From IMG/VR virus record IMGVR_UViG_2541047798_000010: DNA of 43,320 nt; one strand, 5' to 3'. Within the stretch, counting starts at the first letter, position 1. Each line of letters begins with the position of its first letter. Source of the DNA: a virus. Its lineage: Duplodnaviria > Heunggongvirae > Uroviricota > Caudoviricetes. Position numbers and translations under genes: made by a program. Under the pieces are notes generated by a model. That model saw nothing but the letters and a program-made list of their open reading frames with translations. It was not told where the DNA came from and searched no databases. This document shows, one piece after another, positions 3,361-38,123 of the stretch.

Positions 3361-3386
3361 CCCGCAAAATATTGCGGGCTTTTTTT
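3361..3386. terminator. Hairpin overlapping the tailspike stop codon; U-tract is on the plus strand, orientation and function ambiguous
   Basis: Stem CCCGCAAAATATTGCGGG followed by CTTTTTTT on the plus strand. Confidence 0.35.
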
Positions 3387-6300
3387 AACGTTCTTCCAGA
3401 GACTGAATCCGCTCTTTTATCTTATCCATTTCTCTGCGCTGCCATGCTGCCTCGATATAGAATAAGAGATCAGGCCTGACCCCCCATCTAGATCCTGCTG
3501 GCGTTATTTCAACGCGCTCAATGATGTCTTCCATTACCATCACTGGATTATCATCCTCATCAACAATGATGCTCCCGTCATTATCAGTCAGCGGCATTTC
3601 CCTTTGGCCAGTAATGACGTCATCATATACTGCGGGATAATCGTCATAGCAAAGAAAGGCATAGCGGCATGTTGTGCTTTCTTCTTCCATGAGTCCGTGA
3701 GAAATAAGAACATCACGAAGTTGCTGCGCGATTACACCATGATGTATCCTCGCCCCTTCTTCCCCCTTTATAGCGACAGCGTTCAGCCATTTATAAGCGA
3801 TATACCTGACGTCACCCCAGGCATCCAGCAATGCTTCGTCAGGAGAGACCGGCTCTGTCTTTAATGTTCCGTCACTGGTAACCACAGGATTGGAGCCAAG
3901 ATAAACTGTCGAGAACCTGTTTCCCGGACCACCAAGAGCATTTACATTATCAAGATAAGGTTTAACATCTCCGTTCTCAAAAAGATGTTCGAGTGCGTTA
4001 TATACCGCGCGACGTGGAGTACTGCTTCCGGAACCATGCAACGTTATCATTGCACCATCTGCTGAAGACGTTGTTTCACCGCCGCTAACGATTAATCTCT
4101 GAGCGGTAACATCATCAGACGGTACTTTCTTCGCAATAATGGCGTAATTACCCTCAAGTTTGACTTCCGCGCGAACTTGTCCTGATGTACCTGCATGGAC
4201 AGTCAGTGACTGGACGGCAACATCATCTGTGAAATCAACGGGTACAGGAACCGTCCTCACGCCTGACGTCGACATAAAAGTAGGAAGCGTTCTGTTAGGA
4301 GTGGCTCCGTAGACAAAATCCCTTGAAACAAATTCTTCCTGTTTGATTTTCACCCTGAAACAATATAAATCAGCCGGGTGACCATCGTGAACATAAGGAT
4401 ATTTTCTGTTGTTATCCCCTATGCTCCATGGGTTTAGAAAGTCTTCCCCACCGAAAATGTAGTACAGCCAGTTGTCTTTGATACAAACTGAACCAACACC
4501 AACCGCAGAGTTAACTATTCCGCCCTGATAAATCTGATCAGTAACATTAACCCACTCTACATTATCCAGACTCCACTCATTGACGTTAACTCTGGTCATA
4601 AATGTTCTTGGATAATTTCCTGCATAACGGTTATCAGGTTCTCCTCCTTCCCACTCACCAAATGCGCGCTCACTGCCAAAAATAATCAGCTCATCGCCAA
4701 CTTTGGCAAAAGGAAGGTTTGAGTGATGAACATTATTTGGGAAGCGAAGAGAATTCCATGATGTACCTAAATCAGAGCTTCTGTGCAATGAACTACCGGG
4801 TTGAGTACTTAATGTCCCCCTGGTCGTCAGATACAGAATGCCATCATAATATTTTACACATGGCTCAGATGCATTCGCCTCATATTCTGCAGGTATGCGT
4901 CTGCGAACAAAGCTACCAGGAGAACCGAAAGCATCAGAGAAATAGAGTATCCCAAGCTCGCGTGGACCAATATCACCATTATGGTAGCCAACAGCAAAAC
5001 TGTTATCGCTAATCGTCGCAAAACTGTGAATCTCAGTAACAGGAGTGCTTCCGTCAACAAAAGAAGGAATAGTTCCAAGACTGGTTTTTCTCCATGGTGA
5101 CGAGTGAAATGATGTGCCAAAACTCCAGTATCTACCCTCGTTATTCTGATCCACATCCTGAGTATTTTGCGTCGTAACTGTAAAAGTATTTTTATCAATA
5201 ACAGTAGTCACCGTCATATTCCCGGTAACACCTGTAACACCAGAGTTTGAGAAGTTGACAAAATCACCAGCAAATAATCCGTGATCAGTAATGCGAATAT
5301 AAGCGACTTGCTGATTTGCTGCTTTCGTTATACCACCATAAACGCGAAGGCTGCGACTCATTGGGCGATCCCACAACTCTGCAACCTGCAGTTTATTTCC
5401 TCTCACGGTCCGCGTCTCAATTACAGCAAAAAGGCGATTTCTGACAACCCCCATACTCATGCAGTGATAGTTAACTGTGGGATAGTTTTCATGTAAATCT
5501 GTAAGCCATTCCGGCGTTGTCCAGGTCTTCCCGTCATCTCCTGAGCGAACCCATGCAACATGGAGGTTATTTACACCATGGCGGTCTCCAGCCATAAAAG
5601 GCGCATAGATGACATTGTCATATACAAACGTTTTATCCTGCGTCCAGGCGTTGTACCACGGTGTATCTGTAATTTTAAATAACTCTCCCTGGATAAAATC
5701 TTCAGAAGCATAAAAAAGAGGCTGGCCCGGTATTCTCTCAAATAAAAAACGAGCATTTTTAAATCGACTGACATCCGGAAGAGTTGATACTTTAAAAGTA
5801 AGCCCTAATCCGTCAATTTTATAACCTGGAGATGAGGCTTCAAGGCACGCGCTTATTGCAGTGGAGTCGTCATTTATACCATCACCAACAGCTCCAAAAT
5901 CTTTGGGGCTAATAGCATCACGCATTTTATCCTGGAACGTTCGGTACACAGCCCCAGAACCATACTGAATAAACCAACCAAAACCACCAACAACCCCGGC
6001 GATTGCAGCATCAACATAATTACGCATTGAGCGATTATTTACAGCGTCCTGCTCAAATGATGGATCTGCAAGGTTAGAAATTTTGTTTTGCTTTGCATCG
6101 TAATATTTTGCAAGCAGAGAGGGCTTCATCAATGCACGTCTGAACCACCCAAAACATTGCTGGATCAGCATCGTCAGGTAGTCAAAGGCATCTTCATGCA
6201 CTTCGGGGAAAAATTTTCCCTGATTGCGAAGGTCTGTCTCCTGCACTACATCAAGCACACGATCTATCGTAATTCGCCATCCAGTAGCAAGCGGAGACGG

Positions 6301-6504
6301 AAGAACCACAGAACCGCCACTATAAGTGCCCGCCCCAGTTACCGTATAACCGGTATCCAGGACCAATTCTGTTACGTTCCCGTTCAGGTCAGACACCTGA
6401 ACAACCAGGTCTGATTTTCTGAAAATTCGAAAAGTATACGGAAACGATGTCGTAACGCCGTTACCGGTGTATTCGTTGTGGTCAACTTCGGTTGAGACCG
6501 TCAT
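3385..6504 (-). CDS. Tailspike/depolymerase: T7 gp17-like N-terminal adaptor, central domain with pectate-lyase-like motif plus sialidase-type RIP and two Asp-box motifs, C-terminal intramolecular-chaperone (peptidase S74-like) domain
   Basis: 1039 aa; RBS GGAG upstream of ATG 6504; motifs DFGAVGDGINDD (aa 202-213), ERIP (aa 255-258), SGDDGKTW (aa 321-328), SSDLGTSW (aa 576-583); C-terminal about 160 aa from TSDGTLKTEP resembles auto-cleaving chaperone domains. Confidence 0.9.
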   Translation of the reverse strand: MTVSTEVDHNEYTGNGVTTSFPYTFRIFRKSDLVVQVSDLNGNVTELVLDTGYTVTGAGTYSGGSVVLPSPLATGWRITIDRVLDVVQETDLRNQGKFFPEVHEDAFDYLTMLIQQCFGWFRRALMKPSLLAKYYDAKQNKISNLADPSFEQDAVNNRSMRNYVDAAIAGVVGGFGWFIQYGSGAVYRTFQDKMRDAISPKDFGAVGDGINDDSTAISACLEASSPGYKIDGLGLTFKVSTLPDVSRFKNARFLFERIPGQPLFYASEDFIQGELFKITDTPWYNAWTQDKTFVYDNVIYAPFMAGDRHGVNNLHVAWVRSGDDGKTWTTPEWLTDLHENYPTVNYHCMSMGVVRNRLFAVIETRTVRGNKLQVAELWDRPMSRSLRVYGGITKAANQQVAYIRITDHGLFAGDFVNFSNSGVTGVTGNMTVTTVIDKNTFTVTTQNTQDVDQNNEGRYWSFGTSFHSSPWRKTSLGTIPSFVDGSTPVTEIHSFATISDNSFAVGYHNGDIGPRELGILYFSDAFGSPGSFVRRRIPAEYEANASEPCVKYYDGILYLTTRGTLSTQPGSSLHRSSDLGTSWNSLRFPNNVHHSNLPFAKVGDELIIFGSERAFGEWEGGEPDNRYAGNYPRTFMTRVNVNEWSLDNVEWVNVTDQIYQGGIVNSAVGVGSVCIKDNWLYYIFGGEDFLNPWSIGDNNRKYPYVHDGHPADLYCFRVKIKQEEFVSRDFVYGATPNRTLPTFMSTSGVRTVPVPVDFTDDVAVQSLTVHAGTSGQVRAEVKLEGNYAIIAKKVPSDDVTAQRLIVSGGETTSSADGAMITLHGSGSSTPRRAVYNALEHLFENGDVKPYLDNVNALGGPGNRFSTVYLGSNPVVTSDGTLKTEPVSPDEALLDAWGDVRYIAYKWLNAVAIKGEEGARIHHGVIAQQLRDVLISHGLMEEESTTCRYAFLCYDDYPAVYDDVITGQREMPLTDNDGSIIVDEDDNPVMVMEDIIERVEITPAGSRWGVRPDLLFYIEAAWQRREMDKIKERIQSLEER

Positions 6505-6608
6505 GTTAAATCTCCAGATAGTCGCAGCACCCGTTGCGCCGCATATCTGGTTATTCTATTACCTGAAAAACCACATATGGATAAAAAGACTATAAATACC
6601 AATAGATA

Positions 6609-6623
6609 TTACCTTTCGGGTAA
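6609..6623. promoter_or_regulatory. Operator-type palindrome TTACC-N5-GGTAA (copy upstream of LexA-controlled gene, in divergent region with tailspike)
   Basis: ATTACCTTTCGGGTAAT; perfect match to the motif found at OR and OL. Confidence 0.6.
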
Positions 6624-6660
6624 TTTGCAAAACGTGCTGGATAGCAAACAAATTATTTGT

Positions 6661-6680
6661 TACTGTATAAACATACAGTT
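6661..6680. promoter_or_regulatory. LexA (SOS) box
   Basis: TACTGTATAAACATACAGTT: CTGT-N8-ACAG core intact, 17 of 20 positions match TACTGTATATATATACAGTA; 20 bp upstream of ATG 6700. Confidence 0.75.
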
Positions 6681-6699
6681 ATTGCATGGAGAAGATAAG

Positions 6700-6957
6700 A
6701 TGCAGCAGTATCACTATCCACTGGAAGACGGATTTACCGAAAGGATTCACACGCCGGGAGGCGTCAGGTCACTGGTGGAGGGATCGCACTTGATGAAATT
6801 ACTCCGGGATCTCGATAAGGATGGATTTAATGTCGATGGCCCACTTGCCGAACTGACTGCACTGATTAACTACGTCACCAGCTCACAGATGTCTATGCAG
6901 GATCTACAAACACATCTCGACTATTGTGCCGAACAATTACGAAAACAAACCAGATAA
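6700..6957 (+). CDS. Small standalone antirepressor-effector-domain protein (homolog of the C-terminal domain of the two Ant paralogs); SOS-controlled candidate antirepressor
   Basis: 85 aa from ATG 6700 (RBS GGAG 8 nt upstream); aligns with Ant C-terminus (IH-P-GV...LM-LL...DG-V-G-AELT...DLQTH-Y); LexA box immediately upstream. Confidence 0.65.
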   Translation: MQQYHYPLEDGFTERIHTPGGVRSLVEGSHLMKLLRDLDKDGFNVDGPLAELTALINYVTSSQMSMQDLQTHLDYCAEQLRKQTR

Positions 6958-6988
6958 GATTTGAAATTACCAATAGGAGTGCTTATAT

Positions 6989-7003
6989 TTACCTTTGCGG
7001 TAA
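6989..7003. promoter_or_regulatory. Operator-type palindrome TTACC-N5-GGTAA sitting in the loop of a hairpin (AGGAGTGC/GCACTCCT) at the outer edge of the left ant arm
   Basis: TTACCTTTGCGGTAA; mirrored by the copy at 10028. Confidence 0.6.
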
Positions 7004-7094
7004 ATTTACATCGCACTCCTCTTGTGCCATAGTAATCGGGCACTGGCAAAATCCAGTGCCGGGATTGGCGTCCCGGGTTACTAAGTGGCGCATA

Positions 7095-7117
7095 CCACGC
7101 CAGACGTGGTTTTTTTA
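7095..7117 (+). terminator. Rho-independent terminator inside the ant1 leader
   Basis: Stem CCACG/CGTGG followed by TTTTTTTAT; preceded by two further stem-loops (GGCACTGG/CCAGTGCC and CCGGGA/TCCCGG). Confidence 0.55.
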
Positions 7118-7272
7118 TGCGTTAAGCACAGCTATATCCGAATTATGGTGGGCTGGGCAGGGGTCCGAAAGGACGCCGGTACCACTTAGGCCGGTACGCC
7201 AACCTTGTCCAGTTCACCACCAGTAATTGGCGTTGCGGTGGTGATTAAAATCACTAAGTGGAGATAACCACC

Positions 7273-7983
7273 ATGGCTAATGCTCAAACTGCCATCTTCA
7301 AATTTGAATCTGTTAACCCTATCCGTTCCATCATTATCGATGGCCAACCATGGTTTGTAGCCCAAGACGTTTGTAGTGCGCTGCGTATCCAAAACGTCAC
7401 CCAAGCACTTGAAAAACTGGATGATGATGAAAGGTCTATGTTCAACATAGGGCATGAACATCGTGCAATTTTTGACAGCCGAGTAAAAGAGATCAACATT
7501 ATCTCCGAGTCAGGCCTCTACACACTGATCCTCCGCTGCCGCGACGCAGTGACACCAGGCACTATCCCCTACCGCTTTCGTAAATGGGTTACAGGTGAGG
7601 TTCTTCCTCAGATCCGCCGCACCGGAAGTTACATTAAAAACTCGCTCCCGCAGGAAGAACGCATAAAGATGGTTGCCGACCAGGTAGCCAACGCCACAGC
7701 ATCAGCAGTGATGCAGGCAATGAAGATAGAGAACAAAACCTACAGCGCCCCGCTGAAGCCCGGCTACCGCAGCCTGATTCATTCGCCGTCTGGTGTTCTC
7801 GGCCTGACGGAGAACTCACTGCTGATGAATCTGCTGAACCAGTTACAGGAAGACGGGCACGATGTATCGGGCGCGGCGGCGGAGCTGACCACCATGTTTT
7901 GCTACATCGTTGGTGTGAGCAAATGCCTGCGTGATATCCAGACGCACGCGGAGTACATCAACGACAAGGCTGGGTTCTTCTGA
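7273..7983 (+). CDS. Antirepressor paralog 1 (Bro-N-like N-terminal domain plus shared C-terminal effector domain)
   Basis: 236 aa from ATG 7273 (RBS GGAG); N-terminal IFKFESVNPIRSIIIDGQPWFVAQDVCSAL is Bro-N/KilA-N-like; C-terminal half nearly identical to paralog 2. Confidence 0.8.
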   Translation: MANAQTAIFKFESVNPIRSIIIDGQPWFVAQDVCSALRIQNVTQALEKLDDDERSMFNIGHEHRAIFDSRVKEINIISESGLYTLILRCRDAVTPGTIPYRFRKWVTGEVLPQIRRTGSYIKNSLPQEERIKMVADQVANATASAVMQAMKIENKTYSAPLKPGYRSLIHSPSGVLGLTENSLLMNLLNQLQEDGHDVSGAAAELTTMFCYIVGVSKCLRDIQTHAEYINDKAGFF

Positions 7984-8055: not shown

Positions 8056-8070
8056 TTACCTTACGGGTGA
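8056..8070. promoter_or_regulatory. Imperfect operator-type site upstream of the cargo gene
   Basis: TTACCTTACGGGTGA (one mismatch in the right half-site). Confidence 0.4.
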
Positions 8071-8199: not shown

Positions 8200-8739
8200 G
8201 TGTTAAGTGAAGAAATGCAATTTGCCATGGCTGTGGCTCAAATCGTAAGTGCAGTCGCGGTTTCGCTTGGCTTGTTCATAGCTATCGCTACTATTATTTA
8301 TAATGTAAATACAGCGAGAAAAGTACACACTTCAGTATTCCTTGGTGAAAGCAGGTTTGATGTAGATTATAAGAAAGGCCTATCTACTATGCGCCGCATT
8401 CACGAGTCGAACAAATCATTCCGCTCTTATATGTATCCAAGCAATGGGCAGGCTGATCTTACGGATGAAGAAAAGATAGAGAAGAGAGAAATAATTTACT
8501 GTCTAGGTTTCTACGAACGCATGGCTGTGAGCGTGAAGCGGAAAACTTATGATGAGACCATGATTAAGGAAGTATTTTACAGCTCCGTTGTAAATAACTA
8601 TCAGATTGCGCTACCTCTTATACAAGCTATTAGAGAAAAAGAAAACATAAACACATATTTTAAAGAATATGAATGGTTAGCCACACGATGGAAGGATTGT
8701 CCATTGAAGGACAAATCCCCGTGGTACAAGTTTTGGTAA
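8200..8739 (+). CDS. Membrane-anchored protein of unknown function; AT-rich cargo between the inverted ant genes (candidate superinfection-exclusion or abortive-infection protein)
   Basis: 179-aa ORF with GTG start at 8200 (GGAG 7 nt upstream) or ATG 8215; single N-terminal TM helix; markedly AT-rich; 3 of the first 8 Arg codons are AGA/AGG; followed by a strong terminator. Confidence 0.6.
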   Translation: MLSEEMQFAMAVAQIVSAVAVSLGLFIAIATIIYNVNTARKVHTSVFLGESRFDVDYKKGLSTMRRIHESNKSFRSYMYPSNGQADLTDEEKIEKREIIYCLGFYERMAVSVKRKTYDETMIKEVFYSSVVNNYQIALPLIQAIREKENINTYFKEYEWLATRWKDCPLKDKSPWYKFW

Positions 8740-8762
8740 GCCCGCAGCGCGGGCTTTTTTGT
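8740..8762 (+). terminator. Rho-independent terminator after the cargo gene
   Basis: GCCCGC-AGC-GCGGGC followed by TTTTTTGT directly after the TAA stop. Confidence 0.7.
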
Positions 8763-8832
8763 GGACGAAACAAAAGTCAGTGCTACACTCATTGACGCCA
8801 CATTGAGGTGGCTTATAGATGGAAATTTCACA

Positions 8833-8994
8833 ATGAAAAAAGCATTTGCTGCACTGTTCGTTTTGTTGTCTCTGGTAGCTTCAACTCAGGCCTTTGCCGG
8901 TCGTTGTCAGCACGACAGCGACACTGCTGCTGACGGCTCCCGCTGCGGTGGGCGTTCTGCGGATTCCCGCCCTGGCGGCGGTGGCATTCGTTAA
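8833..8994 (+). CDS. Possible small secreted Gly-rich peptide (53 aa); weak call
   Basis: Internal ATG of track ORF 8761-8994; predicted signal peptide MKKAFAALFVLLSLVASTQAFA; no convincing RBS. Confidence 0.3.
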   Translation: MKKAFAALFVLLSLVASTQAFAGRCQHDSDTAADGSRCGGRSADSRPGGGGIR

Positions 8995-9044: not shown

Positions 9045-9470
9045 CACATCCCTGTGCCGCCGTTCTGTCAGAAGAACCCTGCTTTGTCGTTGATATACTC
9101 CGCGTGGGTCTGGATATCACGCAGGCATTTGCTCACACCGACGATGTAGCAGAACATGGTGGTCAGCTCCGCCGCCGCGCCCGATACGTCGTGCCCGTCG
9201 TCCTGTAACTGGTTCAGCAGATTCATCAGCAGTGAGTTCTCCGTCAGGCCGAGAACACCAGACGGAGAATGAATCAGGCTGCGGTAGCCGGGCTTCAGCG
9301 GGGCACTGTAGATTTTGTTCTCTATCTTCATCGCCTGCATTACTGCTGACGCCGTGGCGTTGGCTACCTGGTCGGCAACCATCTTTATGCGTTCTTCCTG
9401 CGGGAGCGAGTTTTTAATGTAACTTCCGGTGCGGCGGATCTGAGGAAGTACTTCGCCTGTAACCCATTCA
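9045..9470. repeat. Right arm of the near-identical inverted repeat (3-prime half of ant2)
   Basis: Reverse complement matches 7585-8010. Confidence 0.8.
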
Positions 9471-9760
9471 AGAAATCTGAATGCTCTCGTTCCCTCAGTC
9501 ATTGCCTCTTTGCAACGCAGAATAAGGATGTAGAGACCTGATTCTGAAACGATGGATAGTTCTTGTATTCCACCAGGGGTCTGTATTGAATACAGCCCCT
9601 TTTTGTTCCAGCCTTTTTTATCAAGTTTTCTCGCTTGTGTAACATCAATATTCAAAGCATTGCACACATCTTTGGTGACAAACCAAGGTTCTCCGTCAAT
9701 CATGAACATACGGATCTGGCAGGATGACTCAAAGGAAAAGATGGAAGGTTTGGTATTCAT
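9068..9760 (-). CDS. Antirepressor paralog 2 (Bro-N-like N-terminal domain plus shared C-terminal effector domain), inverted relative to paralog 1
   Basis: 230 aa from ATG 9760 (RBS AGGTGA); N-terminal domain diverged from paralog 1, C-terminal about 130 aa near-identical. Confidence 0.8.
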   Translation of the reverse strand: MNTKPSIFSFESSCQIRMFMIDGEPWFVTKDVCNALNIDVTQARKLDKKGWNKKGLYSIQTPGGIQELSIVSESGLYILILRCKEAMTEGTRAFRFLEWVTGEVLPQIRRTGSYIKNSLPQEERIKMVADQVANATASAVMQAMKIENKIYSAPLKPGYRSLIHSPSGVLGLTENSLLMNLLNQLQDDGHDVSGAAAELTTMFCYIVGVSKCLRDIQTHAEYINDKAGFF

Positions 9761-10027
9761 GGCGATCACCTTTGTAGTTAGGTTAATCACCACCGCTGAG
9801 ACCAATCAGATGGTGGTGAACTGTGCAGAGTTGGTCTTACCGGCTACAAAGGAACCCGGCGCACCTTTCGGTGCCCCCACACAGCCCACCATAGAATAGG
9901 TGCGCTTTACACATAAAAAAACCGCTTATGCGGCATATGTGCCTCTGTAGTAATCCGGGAGACCAATCCCGGCACTGGATTTTGCCAGTGCCTGATTACT
10001 ATGGCACAAGAGGAGTGCGATGTAAAT

Positions 10028-10042
10028 TTACCGCAAAGGTAA
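10028..10042. promoter_or_regulatory. Operator-type palindrome TTACC-N5-GGTAA at the outer edge of the right ant arm
   Basis: TTACCGCAAAGGTAA; mirror of the 6989 copy, with the same downstream stem-loops and terminator in inverted orientation. Confidence 0.6.
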
Positions 10043-10189: not shown

Positions 10190-10543
10190 GTGCCATTCCA
10201 CGGCGCAGAGCTTTATGTTGTCAATCATAACGGCGAACCATACACCCCAATGAAACCTATCGTTGAAGGCATGGGTATGGATTGGGCTTCACAGTTTACG
10301 AAAATGAAGCAGCGGTTTAAAACCTGCATTGTGAAAATCACAATGCAGCTTCCTGGGGATGAACAGCGCCGTGAGATTATTTGTTTGGCACTTCGCAAAC
10401 TTGCTGGCTGGTTGCAAACCATCAGCCCTAACAAAGTCCGCCCTGAAATCCGCGAAAGTATTGAAACATCAACCGTATCGATATCGACACGGTTGATTAT
10501 GACGGTAACTTATTTCCGTGTGTCCTATTTCTCCCGCCACTAA
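10190..10543 (+). pseudogene. Possible gene remnant; ORF with GTG start and no RBS
   Basis: 117-aa track ORF; normal GC content, no ribosome-binding site, ends directly against the minus-strand AT-rich gene. Confidence 0.25.
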
Positions 10544-27201: not shown

Positions 27202-27216
27202 TTACCTTTCAGGTAA
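27202..27216. promoter_or_regulatory. Operator-type palindrome TTACC-N5-GGTAA upstream of the late operon
   Basis: TTACCTTTCAGGTAA; TTGACA hexamer at 27180-27185. Confidence 0.6.
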
Positions 27217-27538: not shown

Positions 27539-27615
27539 GTGGCATTAGCTCAGTTGGACAGAGCAACCGCCTTCTAAGCGGTTGGTCGCAGGTTCGAATC
27601 CTGCATGCCACGCCA
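27539..27615 (+). tRNA. tRNA-Arg (anticodon UCU, reads AGA), phage-encoded
   Basis: 77-nt cloverleaf: acceptor GTGGCAT/ATGCCAC, D-stem GCTC/GAGC, anticodon stem ACCGC/GCGGT with loop CTTCTAA, T-arm GCAGG-TTCGAAT-CCTGC, discriminator G and encoded CCA; differs from host argU. Confidence 0.9.
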
Positions 27616-27701: not shown

Positions 27702-27778
27702 CAGCAGGACGCCATTGCGATGGCTTCATGCTGTAAACCAGTACAGCCACGGAAGGCATAACTCATTGCTTCCAGTTC

Positions 27779-34966: not shown

Positions 34967-34981
34967 TTACCCCTGAGGTAA
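34967..34981. promoter_or_regulatory. Operator-type palindrome TTACC-N5-GGTAA overlapping the RBS of the 34610-34963 gene
   Basis: TTACCCCTGAGGTAA, 4 bp from the start codon. Confidence 0.55.
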
Positions 34982-37019: not shown

Positions 37020-37250
37020 TCATGAGTAGAAGAAGTATGCCAGTTCTGCTTTTGAGCGCAGCCATTGTCTTGTTTTACAGGCTTTAAAAAGCCCATTCAT
37101 CAATACTTTACCTGGCATTTTGCGCTTACCTGTTAAGTGAGTCTGGATATAGTGACTCGTCGTTCCGGCTTCCTGTGCGAAGGCTTCACGCTCATCCGGA
37201 GTAAGTGCAAGCCAGTGCTTTTTGAAATCGAAATGTCCGTTATCGCTCAT
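37020..37250 (-). CDS. Cro-like small DNA-binding protein, divergent from the repressor
   Basis: 76 aa; position opposite the repressor across a three-operator region. Confidence 0.55.
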   Translation of the reverse strand: MSDNGHFDFKKHWLALTPDEREAFAQEAGTTSHYIQTHLTGKRKMPGKVLMNGLFKACKTRQWLRSKAELAYFFYS

Positions 37251-37286: not shown

Positions 37287-37349
37287 TCACCCATAAGGTA
37301 ACAAAAATCAAGGATAGTTACCTATGAGGTGCATTTACCTGTTGGGTAA
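37287..37349. promoter_or_regulatory. OR-type operator region: three operator-type sites between the cro-like and repressor genes
   Basis: TCACCCATAAGGTAA (37287-37301), TTACCTATGAGGTGC (37318-37332), TTACCTGTTGGGTAA (37335-37349); minus-strand promoter-like TTGATT-N17-GAATAT with the first site inside the spacer. Confidence 0.7.
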
Positions 37350-37404: not shown

Positions 37405-37989
37405 ATGAAAAGTATCCAGGACGTCCGCAGGCAAAATCTCAACGACTTGATCGACCGTGAATTCAATGGTGTTCAGACGCGGATGGCAGAAAAACTTGGA
37501 ACTCAGGCAAATCTGGTAAACCGCTGGGCTCTTGGCAAGAAGGTTATCGGCGACCAGGTTGCACGAAAAATTGAAGCTGCCGCCAATAAACCCCGTAACT
37601 GGCTTGATATTGATCGTTCGCTTTCTCAGGAGGGTTTTCAGCCTGTCGGCCCGAGCGATATAGGTCAGTTGGCGGCTCACAACCTGGAACGCTGGATGAG
37701 CGAAAGCCGCGACCTTTCAACACAGGGAAAACTTCACCGCGCATCCGGCGTCGCCCAGGTGACAATCAGCCGCCTGTTAAACAATGAGGTCAGCGTTTCC
37801 ATTTCCACTCTGGAGAATGTTGCATCCGCATTCGGGCGTCACGGATATGAACTACTGATTCACCCGCACGACCCTGCGACTATCAACTATGACCGCTCAC
37901 GCTACGCATTGTTACCCGAAACCGAGAAAGCAAAGATCGAAAGTTACATTGAATTTGTCATCAACCAGAACGAAAAAAGCAAACAATAA
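37405..37989 (+). CDS. Prophage repressor with two tandem HTH (XRE-type) domains and no LexA-like autocleavage (S24) domain
   Basis: 194 aa; HTH-like segments near aa 20-60 and 95-150; divergent from cro-like gene; own terminator downstream. Confidence 0.7.
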   Translation: MKSIQDVRRQNLNDLIDREFNGVQTRMAEKLGTQANLVNRWALGKKVIGDQVARKIEAAANKPRNWLDIDRSLSQEGFQPVGPSDIGQLAAHNLERWMSESRDLSTQGKLHRASGVAQVTISRLLNNEVSVSISTLENVASAFGRHGYELLIHPHDPATINYDRSRYALLPETEKAKIESYIEFVINQNEKSKQ

Positions 37990-38046: not shown

Positions 38047-38123
38047 TTACCTTACGGGTAATTTTTTTAACTCATATCTATTGACACTAAACCAAATAAG
38101 CATAATTATTACCTCAACGGTAA
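38047..38123. promoter_or_regulatory. OL-type region: two perfect operator-type sites flanking a sigma70-like promoter for the plus-strand recombination operon
   Basis: TTACCTTACGGGTAA (38047-38061); -35 TTGACA (38081-38086), 17-bp spacer, -10 AATTAT; TTACCTCAACGGTAA (38109-38123) starts right after the -10. Confidence 0.65.

Follow-up and report, generated by a model that had tools for sequence, protein, structure and literature searches.

The locus at positions 6609-6957 of the window (the whole stretch of 43,320 nucleotides of viral DNA analysed here) is, with high probability, the induction switch of an epsilon15-like prophage and is orthologous to the LexA-Ant-Rep switch of Salmonella phage SPC32H. 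By its sequence, the window is an epsilon15-like (Uetakevirus) prophage of Escherichia coli. The observation is right but unremarkable, since both the mechanism (published in 2013) and the structure of the Ant-Rep complex (2016) are already known. Its value lies chiefly in annotation, and it holds little scientific news. The correct naming of ant identifies the SOS trigger of a prophage family carried by approximately one in ten sequenced E. coli.

The proposed switch has few parts. In the lysogen, a 194-amino-acid repressor, Rep, predicted to be unable to autocleave, would bind TTACC-N5-GGTAA operators at each lytic operon. The host LexA protein would occupy an SOS box at 6661-6680, which overlaps the -10 region of ant, and silence this gene. 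Upon DNA damage, RecA would be activated, LexA would cleave itself, and ant would be transcribed. The 85-amino-acid Ant protein would then bind Rep, at what is a C-terminal tetramerisation domain in the SPC32H structure, and remove it from its operators. With Rep off the operators, the lytic operons would fire. For the phage in the window, LexA binding, SOS induction, and the binding of Ant to Rep are predicted by homology. The sequence-only reading had proposed that an SOS-controlled mini-antirepressor induces a prophage whose repressor does not autocleave, and this proposal is supported, again by homology, in that it matches the mechanism published for the SPC32H ortholog.

The LexA box, TACTGTATAAACATACAGTT, is near consensus, as had been claimed, and is the sole match of its kind. 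No other site in the whole 43-kb window matches the E. coli LexA consensus TACTGTATATATATACAGTA at 3 or fewer mismatches. One hundred shuffles of the window yielded 0 matches to TACTGTATATATATACAGTA, and thus none is expected by chance. On an approximate heterology-index-like score, based on ~22 E. coli SOS boxes of the kind compiled by Lewis 1994 and Fernandez de Henestrosa 2000, the box scores 2.3, against 13.1 for the runner-up 20-mer of the window and values between 2.3 and 11.8 for the reference sites. It is therefore on a par with the best of the E. coli SOS boxes. The two remaining CTGT-N8-ACAG matches in the window (23189 and 27731) are poor LexA sites, and one at 27729 has a score of 14.3 on the same scale.

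The promoter region was aligned across 11 related loci, which come from E. coli, Salmonella, Enterobacter, and Klebsiella relatives. The CTGT and ACAG half-sites of the LexA box are kept in the E. coli prophages, phiV10, SPC32H, epsilon15, and the Enterobacter phages Tyrion and BUCT554, and the central 8 bp vary. Conserved half-sites around a drifting center are the pattern expected of a protein-binding site. In the Klebsiella phages of the alignment, the left half of the box is weakened to ATGT. A 106-bp segment of the promoter region is present in 553 of 5426 complete E. coli genomes (~10%).

The intergenic stretch between the tailspike gene and ant spans 6505-6699 and contains, from left to right, an operator, an CTGGATAG block, the LexA box, and the ribosome-binding site. 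The CTGGATAG block, at approximately 6637-6644, is invariant across the relatives. The gap from the LexA box to the ant ATG is 19 nt, in agreement with the 20 bp that had been given, and all coordinates in the sequence-only reading are correct to within one base. A putative ant promoter can be read in the sequence at 6638-6671 (+), either as TGGATA-17-TACTGT or as TAGCAA-18-TATAAA. A simple promoter scan of the window called no promoter at the LexA box. In a looser scan, which does not choose between the two candidates, both place the -10 element inside the LexA box. The ribosome-binding site, GGAGAAG at 6688-6694 (+), is conserved in the alignment, and its GGAG core can be read at 6688-6691.

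The ant gene lies at 6700-6957 (+), with its ATG at 6700 and its stop codon at 6955-6957, and encodes an 85-amino-acid antirepressor that is orthologous to SPC32H Ant. The protein matches chain E of PDB entry 5D50, named 'Anti-repressor protein', with an E value of 4.1e-47, and residues 2-84 align to residues 3-85 of the crystallised protein. This chain is its sole PDB match. In a global alignment, it is 87% identical to SPC32H Ant. A tblastn search of the phage collection hit the SPC32H and SPC32N gene that is annotated 'ant: anti-repressor protein' and found the small gene standing alone in 35 phage records. Among PHROGs, the protein matches phrog_450 (9e-48), a family labelled 'unknown function', and otherwise phrog_15539 and phrog_1760 only. 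Searches of Pfam, NCBIfam, and PADLOC with the protein gave no family match; the sole Pfam match, DUF724, reached 17.6 bits against a cutoff of 38.4 and is noise. The annotation gap is wide. In all 26 E. coli RefSeq records among the matches listed, the protein is called a 'hypothetical protein'. The small Ant of phiV10 and ZX5 also carries this name, and a Pfam or NCBIfam model for it is absent.

The 85-residue protein is also related to two large antirepressor paralogs encoded nearby. As had been noted from the sequence, it is homologous to the C-terminal domain of both, with 42-43% identity over 72-74 amino acids and an E value of 1e-15. The Bro-N domain is absent from the small protein in Pfam searches, and the part held in common is the C-terminal domain of two Bro-N proteins. 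The same reading had called the small protein a detached domain, and the direction of evolution that this term implies is unsupported; a standalone form of ~86 amino acids is found in every Uetakevirus examined, and Bro-N fusions are found in some. This homology to only the C-terminal third of the neighboring Bro-N proteins, together with an in-frame upstream ATG at 6577, could suggest that the 85-codon frame is a degenerate leftover or a detached piece of a large antirepressor gene and lacks its own function, or that the real gene is a 126-codon frame starting at 6577. The longer frame was rejected because it would put the LexA box and the ribosome-binding site inside coding sequence. A remnant is hardly credible in either form, given that the protein aligns over its full length to a crystallised protein of 86 amino acids, that the frame has its own ribosome-binding site and LexA box, and that the gene stands alone in the 35 phage records noted above and its promoter region recurs in roughly a tenth of complete E. 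coli genomes. An intact antirepressor gene is the preferred reading.

The predicted target of Ant is encoded by rep at 37405-37989 (+). Rep matches chain A of 5D50, named 'Repressor', with an E value of 3.5e-42, and also matches 5D4Z (5D4Z_A), a C-terminal fragment. The sequence-only reading had described a repressor with two helix-turn-helix domains and without an S24 autocleavage domain, and the Pfam search agrees. HTH_3 matches fall in both halves of the protein, as an N-terminal Cro/YdaS-like helix-turn-helix at residues 21-61 and an HTH_3 domain at residues 106-147, and no Peptidase_S24 match was found. By homology, Rep is composed of an N-terminal helix-turn-helix DNA-binding domain and a C-terminal helix-turn-helix-like domain for tetramerisation and Ant binding. 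It shares 99.5% identity with the Rep of phiV10 and 43% with that of SPC32H, the latter with 50% identity in the N-terminal domain and 41% in the C-terminal domain. Because identity to SPC32H Rep is only 43%, some uncertainty about the SPC32H-type mechanism is left, and conservation of the Ant-Rep binding interface is assumed. Divergent from rep is a cro-like gene (37020-37250, -; phrog_35 match), and two Rep operators (37287-37301 and 37335-37349) lie between the two genes.

The SPC32H mechanism was published by Kim & Ryu (2013, J Virol 87:11775) and is summarised in PMC7380047; a further summary is found in bioRxiv 2025.11.27.690993. According to PMC9638917, SPC32H Rep binds DNA as a tetramer, and tetrameric Ant binds two Rep dimers and breaks the tetramer. 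PMC9986798 states that the C-terminal tetramerisation domain of Rep is also its Ant-interaction domain. The 5D50 structure itself (Kim et al. 2016 PNAS) is described in PMC9638917 and PMC9986798.

Phage SPC32N offers a natural comparison at the LexA box. Across the 5.2 kb around ant, SPC32H and SPC32N show exactly 2 differences, one of which lies in the tailspike gene. The second falls in TACTGTATGTTTATACAGTG, a box 17 nt upstream of ant, whose CAG half-site carries a C-to-A change in SPC32N. When the 11 sequences are aligned, this SPC32H box corresponds column for column to the box at 6661-6680 of the window. SPC32N, which is said to differ from SPC32H by 2 nt, reportedly has constitutive Ant owing to a point mutation in the LexA box that overlaps the ant promoter, and the C-to-A change matches this published account. 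In the work of Kim & Ryu, Rep is reported not to be cleaved in the SOS response, LexA is said to control ant negatively, and the Ant family is reportedly described as structurally distinct.

The window and SPC32H belong to one genus, Uetakevirus, and their genes are arranged alike: ant and the tailspike gene diverge, with a Rep operator between them. In the SPC32H record, 'ant' and 'rep' are annotated at places that match the genes of the window. Both Ant proteins are ~86 amino acids long and share 87% identity, and in the alignment the LexA boxes of the two phages coincide over the ant promoter. The Rep proteins are homologous, each with two helix-turn-helix-like domains and without S24, and the operator motif is TTACC-N5-GGTAA in both phages. 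The differences lie elsewhere. The Rep of the window is of the phiV10 type and has diverged to the 43% identity given above. Its phage has an E. coli host and an endosialidase tailspike. In SPC32H, ant is followed by a terminator and a convergent gene, whereas in the window it is followed by two isrK/C4-gated Bro-N/Ant-C genes. In epsilon15 and phiV10, gp19 and p24 are the orthologous small genes; they likewise have a Rep operator upstream and are called hypothetical in those records.

Phage ZX5 is much closer to the window, with an Ant that is 100% identical and a Rep that is 99.5% identical. The ZX5 lysogen is inducible with mitomycin C, which raised titers from 1e7 to 1e9 PFU/mL (PMC9782041). 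In that 2022 study, only the large Bro-N antirepressor was examined, and its overexpression shifted the phage towards lysis (PMC9782041). This result would suit a different division of labor, in which the 85-residue Ant works in trans, against the repressors of other prophages or a host factor, and leaves induction to the large Bro-N antirepressors. The 87% conservation of Ant between clades whose Reps share only 43% identity points the same way, and crosstalk of antirepressors between prophages is known (PMC3121763; PMC7380047). Such a role is nevertheless very unlikely. Virtually every Uetakevirus record has both Ant and Rep (35 and 36 records, respectively), SPC32H and epsilon15 have the small Ant and no Bro-N gene in this region, and crystal structure 5D50 is a direct Ant-Rep complex. 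The reading in which Ant acts on the Rep of its own prophage is thus retained. The asymmetry of conservation between the E. coli and Salmonella clades, with Ant at 87%, its target Rep at 43%, and the operator half-sites TTACC/GGTAA the same in both, is an observation in its own right. It hints at cross-reactivity or at shared immunity at the level of the operator.

Another comparison that had been drawn is with 186 Tum and the antirepressors of the Gifsy phages. The functional logic of this comparison stands. In 186 and in Gifsy/Fels-2, a small antirepressor under LexA repression binds a repressor that cannot be cleaved and so inactivates it (Shearwin 1998; Lemire 2011, PMC3121763). At the level of sequence, the ant gene of the window has the LexA-repressed promoter that characterises Tum/GfoA-type antirepressors. 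The resemblance is taken to be functional only, and searches of Pfam, NCBIfam, PDB, and PHROGs detected no relatedness of the 85-residue protein to the Tum or Gifsy antirepressors. These phages are also of other types (Myo- and Siphoviridae).

The site adjacent to the LexA box, at 6609-6623, is the palindrome TTACC-TTTCG-GGTAA (TTACCTTTCGGGTAA) in the divergent region between the tailspike gene and ant. It had been described as an operator-type site, and the enrichment of its motif bears this out. Allowing at most 1 mismatch, TTACC-N5-GGTAA is present at 13 places in the window, with 0.71 expected, and these are concentrated near rep and at the starts of operons. The half-sites TTACC and GGTA are invariant in 11 of 11 aligned sequences, and the 5-bp spacer is variable. 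The epsilon15 GenBank record places 'repressor' protein_bind features exactly at the motif, including at the site upstream of gp19, the Ant ortholog. The annotated repressor-binding site at the position of this operator stands next to an IHF site in epsilon15. In SPC32H, the rep gene is surrounded by 5 copies of the motif. Owing to the epsilon15 annotation, the copies around SPC32H rep, and the copies of the window that flank rep and operon starts, the best available reading of TTACC-N5-GGTAA is that of the Rep operator.

Several operators of the window are centered on the predicted start of a good promoter, such as TTGACA-17-AATTAT at 38081-38109. This promoter belongs to the early-left (recombination) operon, and it carries two Rep operators (38047-38123) that are 62 bp apart from center to center. 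The paired operators of the window are those at 34967/35029, 38047/38109, 37287/37335, and 30332/30350; two of these pairs are spaced by exactly 62 bp and the others by 48 and 18 bp. A spacing of 62 bp, or ~6 helical turns, fits a tetramer that bridges two sites.

The operator at 6609-6623 is placed differently. It is centered at about -55 to -62 from the likely ant start, outside of the core promoter. On the other side lies a conserved tailspike promoter-like element, TCCATA-17-TAGAAT (6553-6581, -), which lies within a block of invariant alignment columns, 42 nt ahead of the ATG of the tailspike gene. Transcription of the tailspike gene from this element would start near 6546 and would put the operator at about -70. 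With the operator at -56 to -62 from ant and ~-70 from the tailspike start, it is therefore midway between two divergent promoters. The tailspike element has a single GGTAA half-site beside its -10, and epsilon15 annotates its IHF site between the element and the operator. A leftward promoter overlapping the operator was sought by manual reading and rejected, with only weak and unconserved hexamers found.

The sequence-only reading had suggested that ant might be doubly controlled, by LexA and by the phage repressor. In the 62-bp pairs elsewhere in the window, one operator lies at about -62 and the other on the start site, so an upstream operator can belong to a repression complex. At ant, however, LexA would occupy the place of a start-site operator. 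From this arrangement, Rep may possibly also modulate ant via 6609-6623. Alternatively, the operator could be a Rep site for the divergent tailspike promoter, with ant under LexA alone, and we hold this plausible at somewhat below even confidence. Under this alternative, separate repression of the tailspike promoter would be needed, as ant and the immI cassettes lie between the tailspike gene and the remainder of the late operon. Every other operon start in the window has an operator, the leftward TCCATA-17-TAGAAT element is conserved, and the operator is outside the ant core promoter, at about -56 to -62. By inference, SOS induction would also be defeated if Rep repressed ant fully. Against this, the operator at ~-70 is equally far from the predicted tailspike start, and neither core promoter is overlapped. 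The 62-bp pairs with a site at about -62 further suggest that upstream sites can act through Rep tetramers. A main role at the tailspike promoter and modulation of ant by Rep are about equally likely.

Downstream of ant are two cassettes of the immI type. Cassette 1 occupies 6961-7261 (+) and is composed of a Rep-operated promoter (operator 6989-7003), an isrK-like RNA (7040-7116), a C4-like RNA (7141-7224), and an RBS target box (7253-7261). Its RNAs match the Rfam families isrK and C4 with 67.7 and 66 bits, respectively. It is followed by large antirepressor paralog 1 (7273-7983, +), which has a Pfam Bro-N domain and an Ant-like C-terminal domain (42% identity) and matches phrog_130 and phrog_450. 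Cassette 2 is inverted (9068-10042, -). It contains large paralog 2 (9068-9760, -), also a Bro-N protein by Pfam, a C4-like RNA (9809-9896), an isrK-like RNA (9915-9991), and a Rep operator (10028-10042).

In each cassette (7040-7261, +; 9780-9991, -), a box of 9-10 nt in the isrK linker is repeated at the ribosome-binding site of the large antirepressor gene, and both copies are complementary to the C4 loop. In cassette 1, the isrK linker has ACTAAGTGG, the C4 loop CCACTTAG, and the RBS region again ACTAAGTGG. In cassette 2, where the box is CTACA[G/A]AGG, the corresponding sequences are CTACAGAGG in the linker, CCTTTGTAG in the loop, and CTACAAAGG in the RBS region. The phiV10 stretch that was compared (4259-4580) has ACTAAAAGG in the linker, CCTTTTAG in the loop, and ACTAAAAGG in the RBS region. 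The specificity box thus differs between cassette 1, cassette 2, and phiV10, and such covarying specificity boxes are the pattern of P1/P7 c4.

Cassettes of isrK and C4 that gate Bro-N/Ant-C proteins are a known kind of module, and those of the window also fit the isrK-orf45-anrP mechanism of Gifsy-1 (PMC4825925). With the immI region of P1/P7 (c4-icd-ant) and the Gifsy-1 isrK-orf45-anrP module (PMC4825925), they share the C4/isrK RNAs, an antisense loop set against the antirepressor ribosome-binding site, and an upstream target mimic. They differ from both in that the gated proteins have a C-terminal domain of the SPC32H Ant type, that the cassette promoters carry a Rep operator, and that there are two cassettes with different antisense specificity.

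This arrangement leads to a more tentative proposal, which we consider possible but rather unlikely, that the SOS switch of the phiV10 type is a cascade. LexA cleavage would release the small Ant, Rep would be lost, and the Rep-operated promoters of the two isrK/C4-gated Bro-N proteins would open, with read-through from ant into isrK also possible. Transcripts of ant may read into isrK because a scan found no canonical terminator between them. If the cascade were true, the large Ants, which would have the Rep-binding fold of the small Ant but are gated with two different antisense specificities, would provide positive feedback, or else would target in trans the diverged Reps of other Uetakevirus prophages in the same host. 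The operator at 6989-7003 lies inside a larger palindrome, GGAGTGC...GCACTCC (6975-7020), which has perfect 18-bp arms in phiV10. The hairpin that encloses this operator, between ant and isrK, folds as RNA with a z score of -2.8 and could end or stabilise the ant transcript.

The cassette is duplicated and inverted, with arms of 504 nt (7481-7984/9067-9570) at 89% identity and arms of 106 nt (6978-7083/9948-10053) at 92% identity. The C-terminal 120 amino acids of the two large Ants are nearly identical. The region between the cassette copies (8200-8994) holds a DUF4760 gene at 8200-8739, with its own near-operator at 8056-8070, and a 77-codon frame whose product has a hydrophobic N-terminus. 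A PADLOC search gave no match for either of these two. Just outside of cassette 2 is a 117-codon frame (10190-10543, +) with a P22_AR_N domain (E 1e-31), a fourth antirepressor-related frame that is possibly truncated.

The relatives that match the ant region, whether from E. coli, Salmonella, or Enterobacter, are all epsilon15-like podoviruses of the genus Uetakevirus. The E. coli phages HEMP4, phiv142-3, ZX5, and phiV10 are 90-97% identical to the ant region, and the Salmonella and Enterobacter relatives are ~76% identical. E. coli IAI39 is among the closest chromosomal matches. The tailspike gene divergent from ant (3385-6504, -) has Pfam endosialidase domains. It encodes a complete endosialidase with an End_N_terminal domain, a beta-propeller, a beta-barrel, End_tail_spike, and a Peptidase_S74 chaperone, from which the K1 polysialic-acid capsule is the predicted target of the prophage. 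A phage-borne tRNA-Arg gene (anticodon TCT; 27539-27615, +) is located between the portal and terminase gene blocks, with a Rep operator nearby at 27202-27216.
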